A stretch of DNA of 35,881 nucleotides from a virus (Duplodnaviria > Heunggongvirae > Uroviricota > Caudoviricetes): IMG/VR virus record IMGVR_UViG_2541047915_000013. One strand, 5' to 3'. Shown here in pieces: positions 698 through 35,299 of the stretch (the first letter of the stretch is position 1; each line of letters begins with the position of its first letter). A program made the translations under genes and the position numbers. The notes below the pieces were generated by a model, which saw only the letters and a program-made list of their open reading frames with translations, searched no databases and was not told the origin of the DNA.

Positions 698-1060
698 GGG
701 GCTGATTCTGGATTCGACGGGATTTGCGAAACCCAAGGTGCATGCCGAGGGGCGGTTGGCCTCGTAAAAAGCCGCAAAAAATAGTCGCAAACGACGAAAA
801 CTACGCTTTAGCAGCTTAATAACCTGCTTAGAGCCCTCTCTCCCTAGCCTCCGCTCTTAGGACGGGGATCAAGAGAGGTCAAACCCAAAAGAGATCGCGT
901 GGAAGCCCTGCCTGGGGTTGAAGCGTTAAAACTTAATCAGGCTAGTTTGTTAGTGGCGTGTCCGTCCGCAGCTGGCAAGCGAATGTAAAGACTGACTAAG
1001 CATGTAGTACCGAGGATGTAGGAATTTCGGACGCGGGTTCAACTCCCGCCAGCTCCACCA
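698..1060 (+). ncRNA. ssrA: tmRNA (transfer-messenger RNA), 363 nt
   Basis: Starts GGGGCTGATTCTGGATTCGACGGG and ends CGCCAGCTCCACCA; internal tag template GCAAACGACGAAAACTACGCTTTAGCAGCTTAA (787-819) encodes ANDENYALAA-stop. Confidence 0.95.
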
Positions 1061-1061
1061 A
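1016..1061. repeat. attL core: 46-bp direct repeat formed by the ssrA 3' end
   Basis: ATGTAGGAATTTCGGACGCGGGTTCAACTCCCGCCAGCTCCACCAA is identical to 35254-35299; identity breaks on both sides. Confidence 0.85.
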
Positions 1062-22459: not shown

Positions 22460-23890
22460 TCATCTTGAAAGTATCACCCGTTCAAACAATGGCATTAATT
22501 GAGAATAAACATTATCATAATGTTCATCATTTAAAAGATGATATTTATTTTCAAGTTTGATGCTATTAAAACCATCCATGAAACTCTCATAACCAACAGT
22601 GCCAATAATAATCTGATTTGTAAGGGAAAACCCATCCAAGCATAGTTTTATAAGCTTATGCGTATGCTCTGGATCCAAATCTTGTTGCTTTGGAGAGTCT
22701 ATTACTATAGGCATATTCTCAACTGAAGAGTTGCTTTTCATAACACTAAGTAGCGCGTAGTGAAATGCAAATATACCTCGAGGACCTCGACTACCAGTCT
22801 TACCCTTAGTAATATTATTATAACTACTAAGGCCACCTACCTTTGTATTTTCGACACCAAGCTCTTTAAGAGCTTTAGCGAAATACTCTTTGAAACAGTC
22901 ATTTATTTTAACAGTTCTTTTCTTATCATTGTATACTTCTAATTCTTCTTGTAATTCTGTCAACTCGCCTTCTTTTCGACCAATCTCAACGAATAACTCA
23001 TCTAACTGTGAAACAAAAGTAGATTCAATTTCATGGTATGCAGCAGATTTAATAACATCATGAAGCGTTATTTCCGATTGAGTTTCTAAAATCAGCGCCT
23101 GCAACGCCTCTGAAGCAGCCCTTGACTCTTCTAGCTTTTGATTCAATTTAGGAATATTTTCCTCAATCTTGCTTTTCTCATCTGCAAGAACAGCAATGTT
23201 TTTGAGCATTTCATCTCTATGGTTTATATAATTATATTCATTTACTGAATAAGCAACATTATCATCTCGAAAATTCGAAATCTCAAATTCATTATCAATA
23301 ATCGCAGTTATCTCTTTGAGTTCACTCTCAAGGAAATTCTTCCTAGAATATAACCTCAAAAGATTCAATCTATATTCTGTCTGAACTAAATTCAAATTAG
23401 AATATTCATTTAATATACGTTCTAACTTTGATTTATAAAAATCCAAATCAACATCAAATAAAACCACACCAAAAGATTCATCAATCTTACTTTTGCTTCT
23501 TTTTAGAACCTTAACAAAACCATCTAACTCTGAAATTTTAACTTTAACTTCTTTGATTTTCCCTTGAACTGTGTAATATTCCTTTGGCTTAATTCCAGAG
23601 TGATAGTAAAGAATGTTTTTTTGCCATTCTGAGTACATACTCATGTTTTCGAAAGAATTTATCACCGCTTTCCATCCTTCATCCTGATCAATAAAGAATG
23701 GGGCAAACAAACAAGCAGGGTTTGCCTGAGTCGTAGCACCCGTATATTTATTATGTAATTCCAGTTTAAAACCAAATATATTTGAAACACGAGATGCTAA
23801 TGACGAAATCGTGTTATACACGACTAGATCATCATTCTTCAAATCAAAGACACCAATAATCTTTTTATAACGCAAAAAAAATAAAATCAC
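22460..23890 (-). CDS. SMC/ABC-type ATPase, C-terminal part (LmuB/DUF3732-like), separated from its P-loop by a frameshift
   Basis: Long coiled-coil region, then PIVIDSP (Walker-B-like) and DPEH (H-loop-like); no Walker A in this ORF; about 30% GC. Confidence 0.6.
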   Translation of the reverse strand: MILFFLRYKKIIGVFDLKNDDLVVYNTISSLASRVSNIFGFKLELHNKYTGATTQANPACLFAPFFIDQDEGWKAVINSFENMSMYSEWQKNILYYHSGIKPKEYYTVQGKIKEVKVKISELDGFVKVLKRSKSKIDESFGVVLFDVDLDFYKSKLERILNEYSNLNLVQTEYRLNLLRLYSRKNFLESELKEITAIIDNEFEISNFRDDNVAYSVNEYNYINHRDEMLKNIAVLADEKSKIEENIPKLNQKLEESRAASEALQALILETQSEITLHDVIKSAAYHEIESTFVSQLDELFVEIGRKEGELTELQEELEVYNDKKRTVKINDCFKEYFAKALKELGVENTKVGGLSSYNNITKGKTGSRGPRGIFAFHYALLSVMKSNSSVENMPIVIDSPKQQDLDPEHTHKLIKLCLDGFSLTNQIIIGTVGYESFMDGFNSIKLENKYHLLNDEHYDNVYSQLMPLFERVILSR

Positions 23891-24134
23891 TTTCCCCGTT
23901 ATTAATTTCCACCAGTGTAACTATATCATCTGATTTCCAAGCATCATCAAGCCTTAAATCTCCACCTAATGTGTAATAAAGACTTTTAATCAGGCTTGAT
24001 TTACCAACATCATTTGTACCATATATGAAGTTAACCCCTTCTGAAAACTCATAAGAAAAAGCTTTTCTGTCTCTTAATGAGAGTATTTTTATATTTTTAA
24101 ATTTAACGTTATTCTTCATAAGAAACATCCTCAA
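23865..24134 (-). CDS. SMC/ABC-type ATPase, N-terminal P-loop fragment
   Basis: Walker A GTNDVGKSSL; frame ends inside a T8 tract where the downstream ORF continues in the +1 frame. Confidence 0.6.
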   Translation of the reverse strand: MRMFLMKNNVKFKNIKILSLRDRKAFSYEFSEGVNFIYGTNDVGKSSLIKSLYYTLGGDLRLDDAWKSDDIVTLVEINNGESDFIFFAL

Positions 24135-25188
24135 AAGTCAACTTTATAATTGCATATATAGCAATCATAAATTTCTCTTCTTGATTTAATAAAGAGAAAT
24201 CCCCGTCCCCCGCTGCAATTGTTTTTTCGAGTGTAAAGAAGAGGTCTCGAACAGGTATCTCACGATAATGCTCTATACTCTTTAGAGCCGATTGAAATTC
24301 CAGAAAATAAAGATAGTATATTGAATTGACATTGAGCACTTTTATTGATATGCGTGTAAAAACTGATTGTAATTTAATCCCCTCATAAGGATCTGAGAAA
24401 GTACCAAGCAACATACAAACCTGTTCCCATTTTGGCGTTATTTTTATGCTTGCAATGAGTCCAGATAATAAATCAGTTACAAATTCTGAAGATATACCTT
24501 TCTTTAGTACTAAATCTTCAAAAGTTTTGATATCACTAGAAGCAACACTAACCTTCTCATTACACTTATTGATTAATAATTTAGTGAATGCTGTTGAATT
24601 AATACCATGATCATCCCCAAAGTAAGAATTCAAAAAAACTGCAACTTTCCCGTATAAATGTGAGTTAGGATCTAACAAACTAAGATCAGATGTTTTAAAT
24701 TTTATTTTATCAAGAGGAACTTCTTTTTTAGTATTTAGCTGCTCTTGAACCTTACTAATTATAATTTCCTTATGCTCATTATTAAGATCACTACCTTTTT
24801 CGTTATTATCATTTAAGAAATCGAATCCAGCATTCGATAACAGAACCATATAAATTTCGTGACCAACGAATTGATAGAAATGGTCATATAGTTTTGCAAC
24901 AAATGATTTAGGTTTAGCTTTTGTTGCGTTCACTATTGCTGCGAGTGTCCATTTACCATCTTTTTTTGTTTTAACTTGGATAAACTCAGCACTAGTCGGA
25001 GAAACAGATGAATTCAATACAAGAATATCGTCATGATATTCAAATAGAAATAAATATTTCTCCTTTTCTTTTTGTTTCTCAAGTAAATAATTTATCCCCC
25101 AAGAGGCTTGATATGAAAAGCCTCTCAACGCGTTTTCACCGCCCCGTTCTGCTTGATTTACTGTAATTAACGCATCTGATAACGCCAC
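24109..25188 (-). CDS. PD-(D/E)xK nuclease-like protein of the Cap4/DUF4297 type (LmuA-like)
   Basis: N-terminal GGENALRGFSYQ ... YHDDILVL ... EFIQVK motifs; GTG start with AGGGA ribosome-binding site; about 30% GC. Confidence 0.55.
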   Translation of the reverse strand: MALSDALITVNQAERGGENALRGFSYQASWGINYLLEKQKEKEKYLFLFEYHDDILVLNSSVSPTSAEFIQVKTKKDGKWTLAAIVNATKAKPKSFVAKLYDHFYQFVGHEIYMVLLSNAGFDFLNDNNEKGSDLNNEHKEIIISKVQEQLNTKKEVPLDKIKFKTSDLSLLDPNSHLYGKVAVFLNSYFGDDHGINSTAFTKLLINKCNEKVSVASSDIKTFEDLVLKKGISSEFVTDLLSGLIASIKITPKWEQVCMLLGTFSDPYEGIKLQSVFTRISIKVLNVNSIYYLYFLEFQSALKSIEHYREIPVRDLFFTLEKTIAAGDGDFSLLNQEEKFMIAIYAIIKLTFEDVSYEE

Positions 25189-26083: not shown

Positions 26084-28498
26084 TTAATACAGGTTCCGCC
26101 ACTGATCATCTTCCTGCAAACGCTGGTTCCGATAGAAGATACGCAGGCCTGCTCCTGACGGAATACTGCCTCCGCGAAGGAGTAAATCGACCTCTTTCTC
26201 GCTGCCATCAAATCCTCTGGACTTCAGCTCATACACGAGCTGCAGTCGCTGATGGTCTGTAATTCGCTGTTTGTAGTCTTTACGCCGTTTCGGTTTCACC
26301 TGGCGTAACCTTGCAGCCAGTTCCCGGCGCTCTTTTTTGCTCATACTGTGCAGGTAATCGTGCAACTCCTTGTCATTCATACAGGTAATATCCGTTCTGG
26401 AGTCCCCATCAGCTGATTTGTCTTTCCCTTGTTGGTTCAAATTTTCAGCAAGGGGACAGTTATTGCCACGAGTCCAAGGGGCGCAAGCGCCCTGGTCGGC
26501 TGCCGCCTCCTGAACGTCAACGGCCTTACGAACTATTTTCCACTTCACTGCATGAGTGCAGATCTTGCCCTCTGCAATGGGTGACCAGATGCCATAAATA
26601 CGAATGCCGTGATCGCCATAGGCGGTCGGCTCTTCGTTGATTTCATAAGCGGTTCTGATCAGGTGATATTTGCGGGGAACCAGTACGCCGCCCTGCTTCA
26701 TGATGTAGGTGGCAAAACAACCAGCATCAGCAGCAGCCAGGATTGCATCAAGGCGCGGGTTATCCAGTACCGGCGCACCTGCTTTTTTGTCCCCCTGTTG
26801 CCTTGCCGCCTGACCAGCCAGCAATCGCAGTTCACGGTAAGCCTGACGCCCCGGAATGCCAAAGAAGCGGAATTGCTGAACACGATGCAGAGACGCCCAG
26901 GCATTAACGTATTCAGCGTTATCACGCAGGGATTTACCCGTTTCCTTGCTGATCTCGCCAGCCAGACCACGCCCGTCAATGTTCTTACTAATGTATTTCG
27001 CGATGTAGCTTGTCGGCGTTCCTTTGCGCGGGTTAATCAACTCAGACTTAAAGCGCGGCCCTGTGTTATTGCCCAGCTCCTCGCGGTCTTCACGGATGGC
27101 AAACTTACGCAGTAATGCAGTGATGGCGCGGCGGTCTTTTTTGCGCATAAAACACAACAGGTGCCAGTGAACTGTACCGTCATGATGCGGCTCAGCCACC
27201 CGCACGCCATACCACCGCAATCCGGCTTTGTGCATCGCCTTACGAAATGCAGCAAACATGCCGACCAGATAATCACTGCTTTGTCTTACCGTCGCATTTG
27301 TCCAGGTTGGGTTGGGCCTGCCGTTATTTAGCGTGGAATGGAAACGTGACGGACAGGTGATGGTGTAGAAAACGGCGCAGTCACCGCGCATTTCCGCGAT
27401 AAGCTCCAGACCTTTAACACAGGCCATCATCTCATTGCGGCGATGCGCAGGGTTGCTGCTGCTGGCGTTTACCACATCTTCCATATCCAGCGTGTCGCCG
27501 TCTTCGTTCACCAGTTCATGAGAACGAAAAAACTCCAGCGACTTACGGCGCTGCTCACGTTTATGCATCACGGCTTCATAGCTGACATAGGGGGATGCTT
27601 TTTTGCTGACCAGGCAGACAGCACGCAACTGCTCTTCCCGCCATTCGCAACGCATCTTCCATAATTTCCGATACCACCAGTCGGCACACAACATACGCGC
27701 CAGCGAACCCGGAATGAGTTCATAGGGCACGGGTTTACGGCGGTTTCTTTTCCGACGGAGTTGCTCAAACGCAGGCGGAATAACATCCAGACGCAGGGTT
27801 TCCGCTGCCACCTTTTCCCATGTTTTGCGGATTTCTTCTGGCTTAACGTCATCGGTGGCATACAAATCGCCACAAGCTGCATCAAGACACATGCTCATAT
27901 GCGCAGCAACAAGGGTGGACAGGCGTTTCACCTGATCCTGACTCATTTCAGGCAGGATCAGCAGGCCGTCCAGCCCTTCATGGCTTGCCATAAAGCGAAA
28001 AGAAGTGGATAGCTGACTCTCGCGTACATGCTCCAGTCGTTCCAGACATGGCTTAATCGTCTCACGCAAATAGCGGGAATAAGCCTTTGGCCTGCCCAGG
28101 CTGCTGAAGTATTCAATACGTTGCATCAGCGGCTTGCTGATATGGGAAGGCTGGGCGTTGACGTCCGCCAGAATGACCATGTCTGGATTAAAACGCTGCT
28201 GCTCATGCGCCAGCTTTGCCCGGCTAATGAGCTTATCCTGCTCCATTTCGCGCTGGACAGGATCACGGGATTCATTAAAGAAATAACGCTCCCAGACCTG
28301 ATCACTCAGTGCCTCACGGCGCAGTTGTTCCTGCTCGTTATCGGCAGCGTACAGAGTGATCAGGTTTGAAAGCGCAGAAACCGGCGCAACTTCCGCCGGG
28401 TCCAGATAAGGGTTAATAGCCTTTTTCGGGCTGTTCCATGAGAATGCTGCGGCGGCCTCGTTAAAGCCGCTGCAGTTGTTCATATCAGCATGGCTCAT
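26084..28498 (-). CDS. A: Replication initiation endonuclease A (rolling-circle initiator)
   Basis: 804 aa; HxH motif (VHWHLL) and YIAKYISK tyrosine motif; gpA-like. Confidence 0.9.
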
Positions 28499-29352
28499 GC
28501 ACGCACTCCGTACACGGCAGAACTATCCACGCCACGCGAAGGATCAAATCCCACCCAGCAGCGCGCCCCAGAAACAGCGATGATTTCTGTTGCAGATTTA
28601 CTCTCACCAGCTGCTACGCCGATGCTGCGTTTTGCCTTGATGTAGTGGTGAGTAAAATTGCGATACAGCGAACGGATCAGGGATGTGTCACTGTTAGAAA
28701 CAATGACCGGATGTCCTTCTGATGACCGATGTTCAAGAACGGATGCCAGGTGATACTGGTCATCTTCAGTGAAGCCGTCAGTGTGATAACCGGAAAACGT
28801 GCCGTCATACGGCGGATCGCAATACACCACATCCCCCGCCTTCAACATCGCCAGCGTTTCATCAAAGCTGGCGCAGATAAACGTTGCCCGCTGGGCTTTC
28901 TCTGCAAATGCGCGAATTTCTTTTTCAGGGAAATACGGATTTTTATAATTACCGTAGGGAATGTTGAAATACCCGCTCTTGTTATAGCGACATAACCCAC
29001 GGTAACCATGACGATTGAGATACAGAAAATATACCGCTTTCATGAAATCAGTAATTTCAGTGGAGTAATTAAACTTCTGCCTTATGTTGTAATAAGCCAC
29101 CTCCCTGTTTGCTTCCTCAAATAAAGCTCTGGCACGAGATATAAATGCCTCACAATCAGCAGCAACCTTTTTATAGAGGTTGATTAAATCAGGATTAATA
29201 TCCGCAACAAGATAGCTGGGGTAATCCGTCTCCATCATCACAGCACAGGAACCCGCGAAAGGTTCAACCAGTCGCGGGCCAGCAGGAAGGTGTTTTTTCA
29301 GTTCGGACATAATGGCGGTTTTATTTCCCGCCCATTTCAGGATGGTGCTCAT
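28495..29352 (-). CDS. dam: DNA adenine methyltransferase (Dam-like, N6-adenine)
   Basis: N-terminal SAM-binding region and DPPY motif (YCDPPYDG); start set at the ATG at 29352 ([11 protein letters not shown]). Confidence 0.8.
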
Positions 29353-29576
29353 ACAGCACCTCCGTTGTAATGTTTGCCTTTCAGCTCTGCAATTTCCTGG
29401 CAGGTAATGCAAAGCTGCACACCCGGAATGGCACGGCGGCGTGCTGGCGGAATTGGCGCTTCACACTCAATGCAAAGCACGCGAGACACGCCCGGTGTTT
29501 TGGCACGGGCAGCACGGATATGGCGCTGGCGTTCTTCTTCAACGCGCTGCTGTACGAGATCCATTGCATCAGCCAT
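29349..29576 (-). CDS. TraR/DksA-family C4 zinc-finger protein
   Basis: CIECEAPIPPARRRAIPGVQLCITCQ motif. Confidence 0.7.
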   Translation of the reverse strand: MADAMDLVQQRVEEERQRHIRAARAKTPGVSRVLCIECEAPIPPARRRAIPGVQLCITCQEIAELKGKHYNGGAV

Positions 29577-31293: not shown

Positions 31294-31926
31294 ATGATAC
31301 AGGTAAAGGTTGGAGAGAATACAGGGGGAAGAGAGGCTATCCATAGACTAATGGCAGCCTATGATTTCAAGTCCAGACAGCAACTTTGCGATCACTTAGG
31401 CGCATCAAAAAGTACCATGGCAAACAGATACTTAAGAGATAGTTTTCCTGCAGAGTGGGTGATTCAGTGCGCCTTGGAAACAGGAGTTTCTTTACTGTGG
31501 CTAACCACCGGACAGGGGGAGCCAGGTCCAAACATTGAACCTAAAAAAAATATCAATTCCGTGAACTCCAGCAAGGTTGTACCTCTTTCTGAACTAGTAT
31601 CTCCTGAAATTGACAAGGCGACTCTCAACGGTGGTTTATTGGTCGATGCTGGAAAAGCAATCATTGATAGCAGCATACTCCCCTCAGACTCAAGCAACCT
31701 ACTGCTGGTGACTACTTCTGGTGATTCTTATTTAATAGATCGCAACCAAACACCACCAGTAAATGGTATGTGGTTAGTCGATATTGACGGGATAAAAAGC
31801 ATTGTTAAATTGACTCGACTTCCGGGAAACAAATTAGTAGTGCATCAGGATGATTCATCGTTTGAGTGTGGCCTAGATGACATTGAGGTAGTAGGCCGCG
31901 CACTGAAAATCATTAAGAGCCTTTGA
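31294..31926 (+). CDS. cI: CI-like immunity repressor
   Basis: 210-aa protein with N-terminal helix-turn-helix-like region; co-oriented with int. Confidence 0.7.
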   Translation: MIQVKVGENTGGREAIHRLMAAYDFKSRQQLCDHLGASKSTMANRYLRDSFPAEWVIQCALETGVSLLWLTTGQGEPGPNIEPKKNINSVNSSKVVPLSELVSPEIDKATLNGGLLVDAGKAIIDSSILPSDSSNLLLVTTSGDSYLIDRNQTPPVNGMWLVDIDGIKSIVKLTRLPGNKLVVHQDDSSFECGLDDIEVVGRALKIIKSL

Positions 31927-31927
31927 T

Positions 31928-32944
31928 ATGACCATCAGAAAACAGCCGAACGGAAAATGGTTGTGTGAGTGCTATCCCAATGGACGCAATGGTAAGCGCG
32001 TGCGTAAGCAATTTGCTACGAAAGGCGAAGCCATTGCTTTTGAAAGCTTCACAATGGAAGAAGTGAATAAAAAACCGTGGTTGGGTGAAAAGGATGATCG
32101 GCGACGCCTATCAGAATTAATTGAGCTTTGGTATTCCCTGTATGGTCAGACACTCGCAGACCCCAAGCGCCTCATGGCGAAACTTAGAATTATCTGTAAT
32201 GGTCTAGGCGACCCCATCGCCTCAGAACTGACAGCCGGTGACTTTACGAAATACCGCGAAGCACGGTTAAAAGGTGACGTTCGTAACGAAGACGGCACAC
32301 TAATGTCGCCAGTAAAACCACGCACGGTGAATCTTGAGCAACGTAACCTATCATCGGTTTTCGGCACATTGAAAAAACTAGGCCACTGGTCAGCACCAAA
32401 TCCTCTCGCCGGGCTGCCAACATTTAAAATCGCTGAGGGGGAACTGGCGTTCCTGACCTCGGAAGAAATTAAACGTCTGCTAGATGCCTGCGCTGATTCT
32501 CAAAACCCCAGTCTGCTTTTGATTGCAAAAATATGCCTGGCCACCGGCGCACGCTGGAGTGAAGCTGAAAACCTGCAGGGCCATCAGTTATCTAAATACC
32601 GCATCACTTATACCAAGACGAAGGGTAAGAAAAACCGCACCGTGCCGATATCTCAAGATCTGTATGACGAACTCCCCAAGAACAGAGGGAAGCTATTCAC
32701 CCCGTGCAGAAAAGCCTTTGAACGAGCAGTAAAGCGAGCTGGCATCGAGCTGCCAGAGGGCCAATGCACTCACGTGCTACGTCATACATTCGCCAGCCAT
32801 TTTATGATGAATGGCGGAAACATACTGGTGCTGCGCGATATTCTGGGCCATGCCGATATAAAAATGACGATGATTTACGCCCACTTTTCGCCCGATCACC
32901 TTGAAGATGCGGTAACTAAAAACCCTTTATGCAACTTAAGATAG
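31928..32944 (+). CDS. int: Tyrosine integrase (P2/186 family)
   Basis: 338 aa; ...ATGARWSEA..., ...HVLRHTFASHFMMNGG... and ...MIYAHF motifs typical of P2-type integrases. Confidence 0.9.
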   Translation: MTIRKQPNGKWLCECYPNGRNGKRVRKQFATKGEAIAFESFTMEEVNKKPWLGEKDDRRRLSELIELWYSLYGQTLADPKRLMAKLRIICNGLGDPIASELTAGDFTKYREARLKGDVRNEDGTLMSPVKPRTVNLEQRNLSSVFGTLKKLGHWSAPNPLAGLPTFKIAEGELAFLTSEEIKRLLDACADSQNPSLLLIAKICLATGARWSEAENLQGHQLSKYRITYTKTKGKKNRTVPISQDLYDELPKNRGKLFTPCRKAFERAVKRAGIELPEGQCTHVLRHTFASHFMMNGGNILVLRDILGHADIKMTMIYAHFSPDHLEDAVTKNPLCNLR

Positions 32945-33260
32945 AGTAACTTATGAAAACAAACTCAAACTATTTACAAATATAATATTCAGCAGGTTAT
33001 CCATTCTCATTTAACTCTTCAGACTGAGTTTAGGTTTTATTTATAGAATAAGATAATTTTTACATCACAAAAAAACCTATAAGCCCTCATCTTTGTTGTA
33101 TAAAAACATCAAAGATGCCACATTCAAAAATAGTAGAAAAGCATAGCATTGCAACATTAAAAAGAAACCAATAAAAAACAGTCATTAGAAAATGAAAAAA
33201 ACAAAAACATTTTTTATCGAAGCTTCAGTCTGACTACTAGTTTGACTCTGCAATTAACTT

Positions 33261-33290
33261 TCAAGATGATCAATATTTATTGATCATCTT
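33261..33290. repeat. Perfect 13-bp inverted repeat (hairpin) carrying two GATC sites
   Basis: CAAGATGATCAAT-attt-ATTGATCATCTTG, 35 bp beyond the deaminase stop. Confidence 0.7.
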
Positions 33291-33324
33291 GAAGCTTACC
33301 TCAGGAAGGATGAGTATAATATTT

Positions 33325-35058
33325 CTACTCAAGGAGATATTCTAACTCATCTTTTATCGGGATAATTTGCTCATAAAGTCGGTGATATGACTTCCCAATT
33401 GCGCCTCTAAATTGTATTAACTTTGGTGGCTTACTACCTATATTAATAATATGGTCTTGAGCTATACCTGGGTAGGGATCAATAAATACAATTTCAGATA
33501 TACCTAACTGATAAGCTTTTTTCGCACACAACTCACAGGGACTGGCAGTTGTATACAACTTCCCCCCCAGAACGCCAATACCACCATATTTTGCAAGTTG
33601 CAAAAATGCGTTTTCCTCAGCATGTAATGCACGTGTATGAACTTGATTACCTTTTTTCTCTTTATCAAGATCATTATGTATATCTTTAAAACAATAAGAT
33701 AAGTTCCTGCCTCTATAAATATCACCAGTTTTATCTATCGCCCTAAAATTTAAGAGTTTCTCATTAGCTTTAATTCTGAAAGAACTATTATTTCTCTCAT
33801 AATGACTGTACGTTTTTTCATCAAAATCGTTCATTAGGCCATCTAGAGATCTCATAGAGCAAGGAATCTGACCGTTGGCAACATCATTCCAACCAACTGA
33901 TTTTATTGAATTATCACCATCAGTTACTACAGCTCCCACCTGTCTAGATATACAGCCAGAGTTTAATTTTACCGTATACGCAACTTGCATAACCCTTTCC
34001 ATTGCAGTAGGTGTTATCAGACCAGGATGCTTCATCAGTGCGATGTACCACGCTAATTGTGCTTTTAAAATATTGTCATTATCAAATTCATTTTTTGGGT
34101 TAAAAATGTGTATATCTGATAGTTCAATACATTTAGTTACATTTGGATTGGTGAGATGTTTGTAAGAGTTATCACCTTTACCTGACTCTACAGAATCTAT
34201 TTCCTCTATCTGCTTTTCTGAAAACTTATGTAGTTTCCGCAAATAGTTTGTTCGATGTTCATCCGGGGCATTTATTGACATTAAATGAAATGCAGAATAT
34301 CTATCCTTAAAAAATTTTGCCTCATATGGATTTCTAATAGCATCTATGACAATTAATGCGTTATCTCTTTTGCTTTTTCTTATTAATTTAATAACCCTAT
34401 TAATAGTTTCCGGCAAATGAAAAACAGATTTAGGCATAAACTCTTTATCTTCAAAATCGACTTCAATACGCCCACGACGTCTAATTGACTTACCTGCTAA
34501 CTGATAGGCTGAAACATATAAATTTGAGTTTATCTCATTTAGTTCAGCTTTGAATTCTTTAGTAAATTTTCTAACTAACTTCAAAATTGATATAAATTTA
34601 TTAATCGTTTTTTCATCAAGCTTCAATTCACTATTATGATCAAGCAAATTCTCAATTACATTTTTAAATCTTGTCAAAATGAGATTATCTGAGAATACAC
34701 CAAAAGTTAATACAATATCTAAATGCTCTTTACTGATAGATTTATTAGATGATAGAATGAATTCAGAAGCTTCCTCAGCTGTTAACATCAGAAGATACGC
34801 TGAGATTAGGTCACTCACCTTAATTGAGTAAAAATTTTCCCAGTGATTTTCTGCGAATTTTTTAACTATATTATAACGATGGACATCCAATCCCTTGTAA
34901 AACCCCTGTAATTTACTTACATCAGGGAAGACTGTTTTTTCGTTTTCAAGAATATTAGCTGTTGTTGTGCAACCAGAACCAGTTCGACCTGTCAAACCGA
35001 CTAAAATAAACTGCCCATTTTCAAGGAAAAGCTCACTAACGAATTTTTTTTCTTTCAT
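33325..35058 (-). CDS. P-loop kinase-like / cytidine deaminase fusion protein (AvcD/dCTP-deaminase-like accessory gene)
   Basis: N-terminal P-loop GRTGSGCTT; C-terminal deaminase zinc motifs HAEENA and SPCELC; ATG at 35058; about 30% GC. Confidence 0.7.
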   Translation of the reverse strand: MKEKKFVSELFLENGQFILVGLTGRTGSGCTTTANILENEKTVFPDVSKLQGFYKGLDVHRYNIVKKFAENHWENFYSIKVSDLISAYLLMLTAEEASEFILSSNKSISKEHLDIVLTFGVFSDNLILTRFKNVIENLLDHNSELKLDEKTINKFISILKLVRKFTKEFKAELNEINSNLYVSAYQLAGKSIRRRGRIEVDFEDKEFMPKSVFHLPETINRVIKLIRKSKRDNALIVIDAIRNPYEAKFFKDRYSAFHLMSINAPDEHRTNYLRKLHKFSEKQIEEIDSVESGKGDNSYKHLTNPNVTKCIELSDIHIFNPKNEFDNDNILKAQLAWYIALMKHPGLITPTAMERVMQVAYTVKLNSGCISRQVGAVVTDGDNSIKSVGWNDVANGQIPCSMRSLDGLMNDFDEKTYSHYERNNSSFRIKANEKLLNFRAIDKTGDIYRGRNLSYCFKDIHNDLDKEKKGNQVHTRALHAEENAFLQLAKYGGIGVLGGKLYTTASPCELCAKKAYQLGISEIVFIDPYPGIAQDHIINIGSKPPKLIQFRGAIGKSYHRLYEQIIPIKDELEYLLE

Positions 35059-35253
35059 CACGTCCCACTTATGAATGCAAGAACAATTAACATATTAATT
35101 GTAATTTATTAACTAATTTTATTCTAGATACTTGATGTAATGGCGGCACTTTGGCGGCAGAGCATTAAAAACGCGTAAGACGAGCAAATACAAAATAACA
35201 CTAACACATTGTTTTCAAACATAATCTACTGTTTTTACTATAATAAAAATGGT

Positions 35254-35299
35254 ATGTAGGAATTTCGGACGCGGGTTCAACTCCCGCCAGCTCCACCAA
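35254..35299. repeat. attR core: second copy of the 46-bp ssrA 3'-end repeat
   Basis: Exact copy of 1016-1061; not a second tmRNA gene, only the terminal 46 bp. Confidence 0.85.

Follow-up and report, generated by a model that had tools for sequence, protein, structure and literature searches.

In phage lambda, the sib element, located past attP, targets the int mRNA by way of RNase III, and in E. coli the correction of quasi-palindromes by intramolecular template switching is an established mutational mechanism. P2-like phages have been described as having a minor defence hotspot between int and att, and small intergenic pseudogenes of core genes were reported to be common in P2 defence hotspots (PMC13586616). 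The antitoxin RNA AvcI/DifV of the AvcID system is located 5' of its gene, is co-transcribed with it, and has a length of 152-174 nt (bioRxiv 10.1101/2021.03.31.437871; PMC10511110). A search of the literature yielded no usable structure of the AvcI-AvcD complex. The locus analysed here combines an int-att interval, a deaminase defence gene, and a perfect palindrome between them, and its features are compared below with those of the described systems.

Organization and distribution of the int-att cassette

The window, which is the whole stretch of 35,881 nucleotides that was analysed, is a Fels-2/186-like P2-type prophage in ssrA. The window begins with ssrA, and the prophage extends from approximately position 1061 to position 35299 (Table 1). 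From the positions of the attL and attR repeats, the deaminase and the palindrome therefore lie inside the prophage. The order of features at the right end is CI, int, a spacer, the deaminase on the minus strand, approximately 72 nt of cassette-specific sequence, the attP arm, and attR. The preliminary description of this DNA had reported an AT-rich spacer of 380 bp, and both its length (32945-33324) and its composition (approximately 28-31% GC) were confirmed. A Dam-like methylase had also been attributed to the prophage, and a gene of the Dam family was indeed identified.

Table 1. Coordinates of the ssrA gene, the attachment sites, and the genes and elements of the prophage discussed in the text.
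Feature	Coordinates	Strand	Remarks
ssrA (tmRNA)	698..1060		
attL	1016..1061		Copy of the attR repeat
LmuB (Lamassu)	22460..23890	-	PADLOC E=1e-208
LmuA (Lamassu)	24109..25188	-	PADLOC E=4e-143
Dam-family methylase gene	28495..29412		TIGR00571, 323 bits
CI	31294..31926		
Intact prophage integrase (int)	31928..32944	+	Own IKMT/DHLE codons ATA AAA ATG ACG / GAT CAC CTT GAA; pairing poor, 6/11
Decayed orf208 pseudogene	32953..33131	+	42% identity over the first ~60 codons, in-frame stops; tblastn E=3e-10 (small database)
Probable integrase relic, last ~32 codons of a Fels-2/186-type int	33250..33324	+ (orientation of the intact int)	Arms correspond to (D)IKMT and (P)DHLE(D); ~14-nt internal deletion
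Perfect stem-loop, 15-bp stem and 4-nt loop	33260..33293	- (putative functional strand, that of the deaminase transcript)	GATC at 33268-33271 and 33282-33285
Anti-phage dCTP deaminase (P-loop NTPase + dCMP/cytidine deaminase; AvcD/DcdV-type)	33325..35061	-	Cargo between int and attR
attP arm, conserved in Fels-2-like phages irrespective of cargo	~35133..35253		Direct repeat TGGCGGCA at 35141-35148 and 35152-35159
attR	35254..35299	+	46-bp repeat of the ssrA 3' end

The deaminase was assigned by NCBIfam NF041025 (425.4 bits, against a cutoff of 400), PADLOC dCTPase (E=1e-145), Pfam PF00383, and its RefSeq annotation. The exact cassette was found in 20 of 5426 complete E. coli genomes at 94-100% identity, and in the E. 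coli cassettes the palindrome always accompanies the deaminase and is never annotated. None of the deposited phage genomes contained the deaminase, matches there being limited to the int and attP flanks, and the spacer had no match in the plasmid collection. A single-protein search of genome contigs for related deaminase loci gave one locus, from Photobacterium, in which the 3' flank is unrelated. The hairpin is not shared by all members of the deaminase family, since AW1.7, LF82, L087, L094, and L179 (numbers preceded by L designate individual loci) have other 3' flanks. Deaminase homologues in unrelated islands have hairpins of their own 10-60 nt past the stop codon, including a canonical terminator in LF82.

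Related prophages differ in the interval between int and att, where GapS1, RES-domain, or uncharacterised genes occur. The direct repeat of the attP arm (TGGCGGCA N3 TGGCGGCA) is kept in related prophages with any cargo and may represent two arm-type binding sites of Int. Between the deaminase start codon and this shared arm (35062-35253 of the window), only approximately 72 nt are specific to the cassette, which is too short for an AvcI-type RNA of 152-174 nt at the described place; any RNA inhibitor of the deaminase in the window would thus not occupy the position of AvcI in the AvcID systems of V. cholerae and ETEC. Between the portal gene (Q) and the replication gene (A), which is the classic hotspot of P2, the minus strand carries a Lamassu system (LmuA and LmuB, 22460-25188). 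With Lamassu and the deaminase in one prophage, at least two defence systems are therefore carried.

The palindrome and its relation to the integrase gene

A perfect palindrome of 13 bp at 33261-33290, just 3' of the deaminase gene, had been noted in the preliminary description. The palindrome is present as CAAGATGATCAAT-ATTT-ATTGATCATCTTG, and its core arms (33262-33274 and 33279-33291) are shifted rightwards by one base relative to the positions first given. The repeat is perfect as reported; its length had been underestimated, the stem being 15 bp with a 4-nt loop or, if counted around a 2-nt centre, 16 bp. Both of the GATC sites described were found inside the palindrome. The deaminase stop codon (33325-33327 on the minus strand) is 33 nt away from the element and the int stop codon 315 nt, the element being 3' of both genes. 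It is the longest perfect hairpin of the whole 35.9-kb window, the runner-up being 10 bp, and a stem of 15 bp was obtained in none of 2000 dinucleotide-preserving shuffles of the 380-bp spacer (2 of the 2000 gave 14 bp), in agreement with the original view that it was unlikely by chance. RNA folding of the palindrome gave approximately -19 kcal/mol for either strand (z = -7.5 to -7.8 against shuffles). The palindrome is a real, non-random feature.

The element had been described as lacking a U-tract and as not being an obvious intrinsic terminator, and both statements held. No T-run is present 3' of the stem on either strand (the minus strand continues with AAAGTTAATTG and the plus strand with GCTTACCTCAG), the relatives likewise have no U-run, and a scan for promoter and terminator consensus sequences made no terminator call at the palindrome. 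Only 4 of the 15 stem pairs are G-C, so that the stem is AT-rich and does not have the G+C-rich character of an intrinsic terminator. An Rfam search using gathering and E-value thresholds found no relevant family; the sole match was to a miRNA precursor below threshold (23 versus 54.5 bits) and is attributable to the hairpin shape.

Viral contigs were scanned using the arms as the pattern, which gave 56 loci; approximately half of these matches adjoin deaminase genes, and several others are inside the 3' end of an integrase gene. The pattern scan of metagenomes gave 120 loci, almost all of which were chance matches or unrelated terminators, with only two copies of the window type and no new relic variants. 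One chance match, unrelated to the deaminase (L187, positions 1208-1389 of metagenome contig Ga0115008_10199856), consists of tandem units of approximately 72 nt, every one of them with CAAGATGATC...GATCATCTTG and runs of GATCATCTTG.

In the relatives with deaminases of 70-77% identity (L010, L081-L086, L089-L093, L176, and L177), int is arranged tail-to-tail with the deaminase with 6-20 nt from stop to stop, and one arm consists of the int codons ATC AAG ATG ACC (I K M T), the other of GAT CAT CTT GAA (D H L E); the two arms lie on opposite sides of the catalytic Tyr and are reverse complements of each other. The arms in the intact int translate as DIKMT...PDHLED, and the embedded repeat is an 11+4-bp hairpin located approximately 50 nt beyond the deaminase stop. 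Since AAG-ATG-ACC reads GGT-CAT-CTT on the opposite strand, the peptides KMT and DHL can be encoded as a near-perfect inverted repeat.

When the alignment was anchored on the deaminase stop, the palindrome of the window was aligned to this part of int, the loop containing a gap of 14 nt. Among the columns outside the pattern, 17 of 32 matched int in the window and 20/32 to 22/36 matched in the E. coli variants L077 and L065, which retain more of int (GGCAaCTTCAAGATGATC versus GGCAtCTTCAAGATGATC in int, and CATCTTGATA). The distance from the deaminase stop is 29-33 nt in the relic and approximately 50 nt in the intact int, that is, similar and somewhat shorter. The relatives with 89% protein identity in the deaminase (L005, L006, L009, L300, and L301, from Citrobacter, Siccibacter, and Enterobacter) have a hairpin at the equivalent place, with the same stem base CAAGATGACC...GGTCATCTTG and a different 13-nt loop and flanks. 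The segment thus has homology to int together with the order, orientation, and position expected of an integrase fragment, and the palindrome is very probably a remnant of the 3' end of a second int gene, apparently shortened by approximately 14 nt and made perfect.

Most of the AT-rich spacer is a decayed orf208; this, like the derivation of the palindrome from an int 3' end, had been missed in the preliminary description. Intact orf208 encodes a predicted protein of 208 aa and is located directly after int in L005, L006, L009, L300, and L301; searches of NCBIfam and PADLOC gave no match, and it has no entry in the precomputed Pfam gene tables. The supposition that L005 is without orf208 was rejected, the gene being intact there and merely not called. 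The layout of the window is int, pseudo-orf208, the 3' relic of a pseudo-int, the facing deaminase, and then attR.

The ancestral arrangement would have been a deaminase tail-to-tail against the int gene of an ssrA-integrating P2-like phage. In the lineage of the window, a rearrangement may have put another int and orf208 upstream, with only the last ~75 nt of the old int kept beside the deaminase, and the route could have been a deletion between tandem prophages or a recombination that retained just the ~75-nt tail of the older int. The loop deletion of ~14 nt and a cluster of substitutions would have produced the perfect 15-bp stem, some of the substitutions extending it with AAT/ATT. In the interior of the right arm, CCATGGTC of int is changed to TATTGATC, the exact complement of the left-hand GATCAATA that the deletion created. 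Exactly this pattern would be the outcome of one quasi-palindrome template switch from CCATGGTC to TATTGATC, and the same templated event would convert the ancestral U.G wobble to U-A. The same wobble was resolved oppositely, to C-G, in the Citrobacter-type relic.

The int genes compared (L010, L082, L084, L090, L018, and L026 with 31928-32944 of the window) are mosaic, and over the whole gene the alleles with the repeat are no closer to one another than to the others. The last ~100 nt of the repeat-carrying int genes form a distinct AT-rich haplotype tied to the downstream cargo, and these genes do not form a clade over their whole length; cargo exchange would therefore proceed by crossovers inside the conserved 3' region of int.

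Signs of constraint on the stem and its possible function

In the two relic lineages, the ten inner pairs had 0 of 40 variable columns versus 21 of 71 for the loop and flanks (p=2.8e-5, Fisher test, in which independence is overstated, the sequences being phylogenetically related). Between L005 and L009, approximately 15% of third codon positions and approximately 20% of intergenic positions differ, and 0 of 20 arm positions. Read in the sense of the deaminase, 97.9% of the stem cells are paired overall, pairing being kept while unpaired positions vary. Pair 21-48 occurs as UG (5), CG (4), and UA (4), and pair 20-49 as AU (12) and GU (1). Covariation involving both sides (one pair with three types and one pair changed on both sides) is thin because most stem positions do not vary at all, 8 of the 11 pairs being invariant. 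L009, L300, and L301 have 1-3% differences at third positions of the deaminase, yet approximately 5 differences in the approximately 25 nt of loop and flank by the hairpin, which suggests locally raised mutation beside the stem in these three loci.

Comparison of 65 int alleles encoding the same amino acids showed 4-7 Watson-Crick pairs out of 11 between the arms, versus 10 of 11 plus one G.U in the alleles that abut the deaminase. An exception is the int allele of L018 and L056, which has the repeat and is followed by a co-directional gene without a deaminase; the repeat can thus occur where no convergent deaminase is present. This gene (L018, positions 1565-2788, and L056) encodes 407 aa, begins 5 nt after the repeat-bearing int, has no PADLOC match, and is a candidate uncharacterised cargo or defence gene. 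Among the repeat alleles, synonymous variation was found in 23 of 26 codons outside the arms versus 3 of 9 arm codons, a contrast that is partly circular, the group having been defined by the left arm; the right-arm codons alone gave 1 of 4 versus 23 of 26.

The predicted stability of the hairpin in the deaminase-sense RNA is -18 to -21 kcal/mol in all three architectures, with the exception of L081 (-12.4). At every locus with an imperfect repeat, the hairpin of the int-sense RNA is less stable by 4-6 kcal/mol, since U.G and G.U are replaced by C.A and A.C on that strand. The loop, or arm spacing, is 4, 8, 13, or 24 nt among the relatives. Conservation in homologous deaminase loci had been proposed as a check on the palindrome, and the stem is kept in Citrobacter and Siccibacter as well as in the 70-77% relatives. 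These patterns in the sequences suggest that the stem is under selection.

A protein-binding site, an RNA stem, and a Dam-sensitive element had originally been offered as roles for the palindrome; the RNA stem was retained on account of pairing, a loop of 4-24 nt, and deaminase-sense stability, and the other two were not borne out. Taken as a whole, the evidence leans slightly towards a fossil of an int 3' end that was apparently co-opted as the 3' stem-loop of the deaminase transcript. For the functional part of this statement, a selected 3' RNA stem-loop as judged from position, strand asymmetry, and conservation, we consider the chances to be about even. The stem would be kept because the deaminase-sense RNA would form a stable hairpin just past the stop codon, where it would define the 3' end or block exonuclease; a role in processing is also possible, and the stem-loop might serve as a barrier that keeps apart the converging transcription units of the deaminase and of CI-int. 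Given the absence of a U-tract, a structure protecting or processing the 3' end, or a barrier, is therefore likelier than a classical terminator, and termination activity of the stem is doubtful. Against a stem-loop function, perfect complementarity can come from template switching without selection. No new class of element emerges from the analysis, and the palindrome is probably an ordinary 3' RNA stem-loop.

An active regulatory role of the stem-loop in the defence cassette is decidedly unlikely, whether as a 3' RNA recognised by the deaminase (a functional analogue of AvcI, for which there is no room at the 5' side) or as a dedicated insulator that would keep antisense transcription from the constitutively expressed defence gene out of the CI-int lysogeny operon. 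If either active role were true, selection on an RNA of the opposite strand would have shaped the synonymous codons around the catalytic tyrosine of the integrase.

The palindrome could also be a functionless int 3'-end scar of cargo swapping, perfected by a quasi-palindrome template switch, in which case the youth of the lineages would mimic conservation. The int origin is well supported, the cluster of changes from CCATGGTC to TATTGATC is the expected product of one templated event, small core-gene pseudogenes are common in such hotspots (PMC13586616), the neighbouring orf208 was left to decay, and no U-tract follows the stem, all of which would suit a neutral fossil. We nevertheless regard it as somewhat unlikely, since the arms are invariant and the loop and flanks variable in two separate lineages (p=2.8e-5), the wobble was changed to a Watson-Crick pair by two different routes, RNA stability of approximately -18 to -21 kcal/mol was maintained across three architectures (except in L081, -12.4), and the int alleles adjacent to the deaminase use synonymous codons that maximise pairing. 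A regulatory RNA of the defence system, that is, a 3' counterpart of AvcI/DifV or a cis element to which the deaminase would bind and which would hold it inactive until a phage shuts off host transcription, is very unlikely. In favour of such an RNA, deaminases of the AvcD family are inhibited by a labile non-coding RNA, the ~72 nt of cassette-specific 5' sequence cannot hold an AvcI of 152-174 nt, and the sequence of the stem itself, beyond its pairing, was kept after coding ceased; against it, the described AvcI RNAs are co-transcribed from the 5' side of avcD at that length, and the homologues elsewhere (AW1.7, LF82, L087, and L094) are without this hairpin.

A site acting at the DNA level, whether a Dam-sensitive element or an operator for a dimeric protein (CI, Cox/Apl, Int, or SeqA at the paired GATCs), would be compatible with the perfect dyad, the spacing of 14 bp between the GATCs, the Dam methylase of the prophage, and a weak sigma-70-like match overlapping the palindrome (TTGACT from 33242, GATGAT ending at 33270). 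The 89% loci of Citrobacter and Siccibacter carry GACC/GGTC at both GATCs with the stem retained (L005, L009, L300, and L301 have neither GATC), and a Dam role is therefore unsupported. The one GATC of the ancestral form corresponds to the Asp-His codons of int, the int-embedded forms have one GATC or none (L010/L081), and a search of the window for GATC enrichment found none; the Dam-related idea can be dropped. A dsDNA site for a dimer is made unlikely by an arm spacing (4, 8, 13, and 24 nt) that no fixed footprint would accommodate, and by the half-site, which when sought in the window as a repeated operator gave an exact copy (0 mismatches) at the palindrome only; variation of the G.U type, moreover, keeps pairing in RNA only. 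A DNA-level site is accordingly highly improbable. That the folded hairpin serves as a cassette-exchange site in the int-att hotspot, in the manner of integron attC sites or the ends of IS200/IS605, is extremely improbable. The hairpin is near a mosaic boundary, and the ~100 nt of the repeat-bearing int 3' end follow the cargo rather than the remainder of int, but ordinary homologous recombination in the conserved int explains this boundary, a matching second hairpin is absent at the other end of the cassette, as is a dedicated recombinase, and, in contrast to attC sites, the arms have a conserved sequence, that of int codons.

Should the palindrome be a co-opted 3' stem-loop of the deaminase transcript, it would represent a clean exaptation, in which a repeat arising from the near-antisense peptides KMT and DHL became the 3' hairpin of a neighbouring defence gene and outlived the surrounding integrase as a free-standing element. 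The int-att defence cassette of P2-like phages would then take along a 3' element of its own as well as the terminal ~100 nt of int, which would be of use in setting cassette boundaries and in cloning such systems with their regulatory ends intact.

Comparison with known systems

The element is similar to the mRNA 3' stem-loops that lack a U-tract, such as exonuclease-blocking stabilisers of the REP type and the hairpins at the trimmed 3' ends of Rho-terminated transcripts, in having a hairpin of approximately -19 kcal/mol located 30-55 nt past the stop codon between convergent genes, with a structure that is conserved while loop and flanks drift. It differs from the REP family in being single-copy and without the REP consensus, its origin as a coding relic is unusual, and its activity is putative. 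Intrinsic and bidirectional terminators are likewise located between convergent genes, and the deaminase homologue of LF82 has a canonical terminator in the same place, whereas the palindrome has no T/U tract on either strand and an AT-rich stem.

Relics of core genes in P2/P4 hotspots (PMC13586616) resemble the locus in that a short int remnant lies beside an intact defence gene in the int-att hotspot; the relic of the window differs in showing signs of purifying selection on secondary structure and not simple decay. As in quasi-palindrome correction, an imperfect repeat appears to have been perfected by a tight cluster of changes, each raising complementarity, a likeness read here from the pattern of changes, and selection could reach the same end state. 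Like AvcI/DifV, the palindrome is a non-coding element attached to a dCTP/dCMP-deaminase defence gene, but it is 3' of the gene and approximately 34 nt long, and thus does not have the position or the length of AvcI. With the retroregulation exerted by lambda sib it shares a hairpin in RNA close to int and att of a temperate phage; in contrast to sib, the strand asymmetry of the palindrome favours the transcript of the convergent cargo gene.
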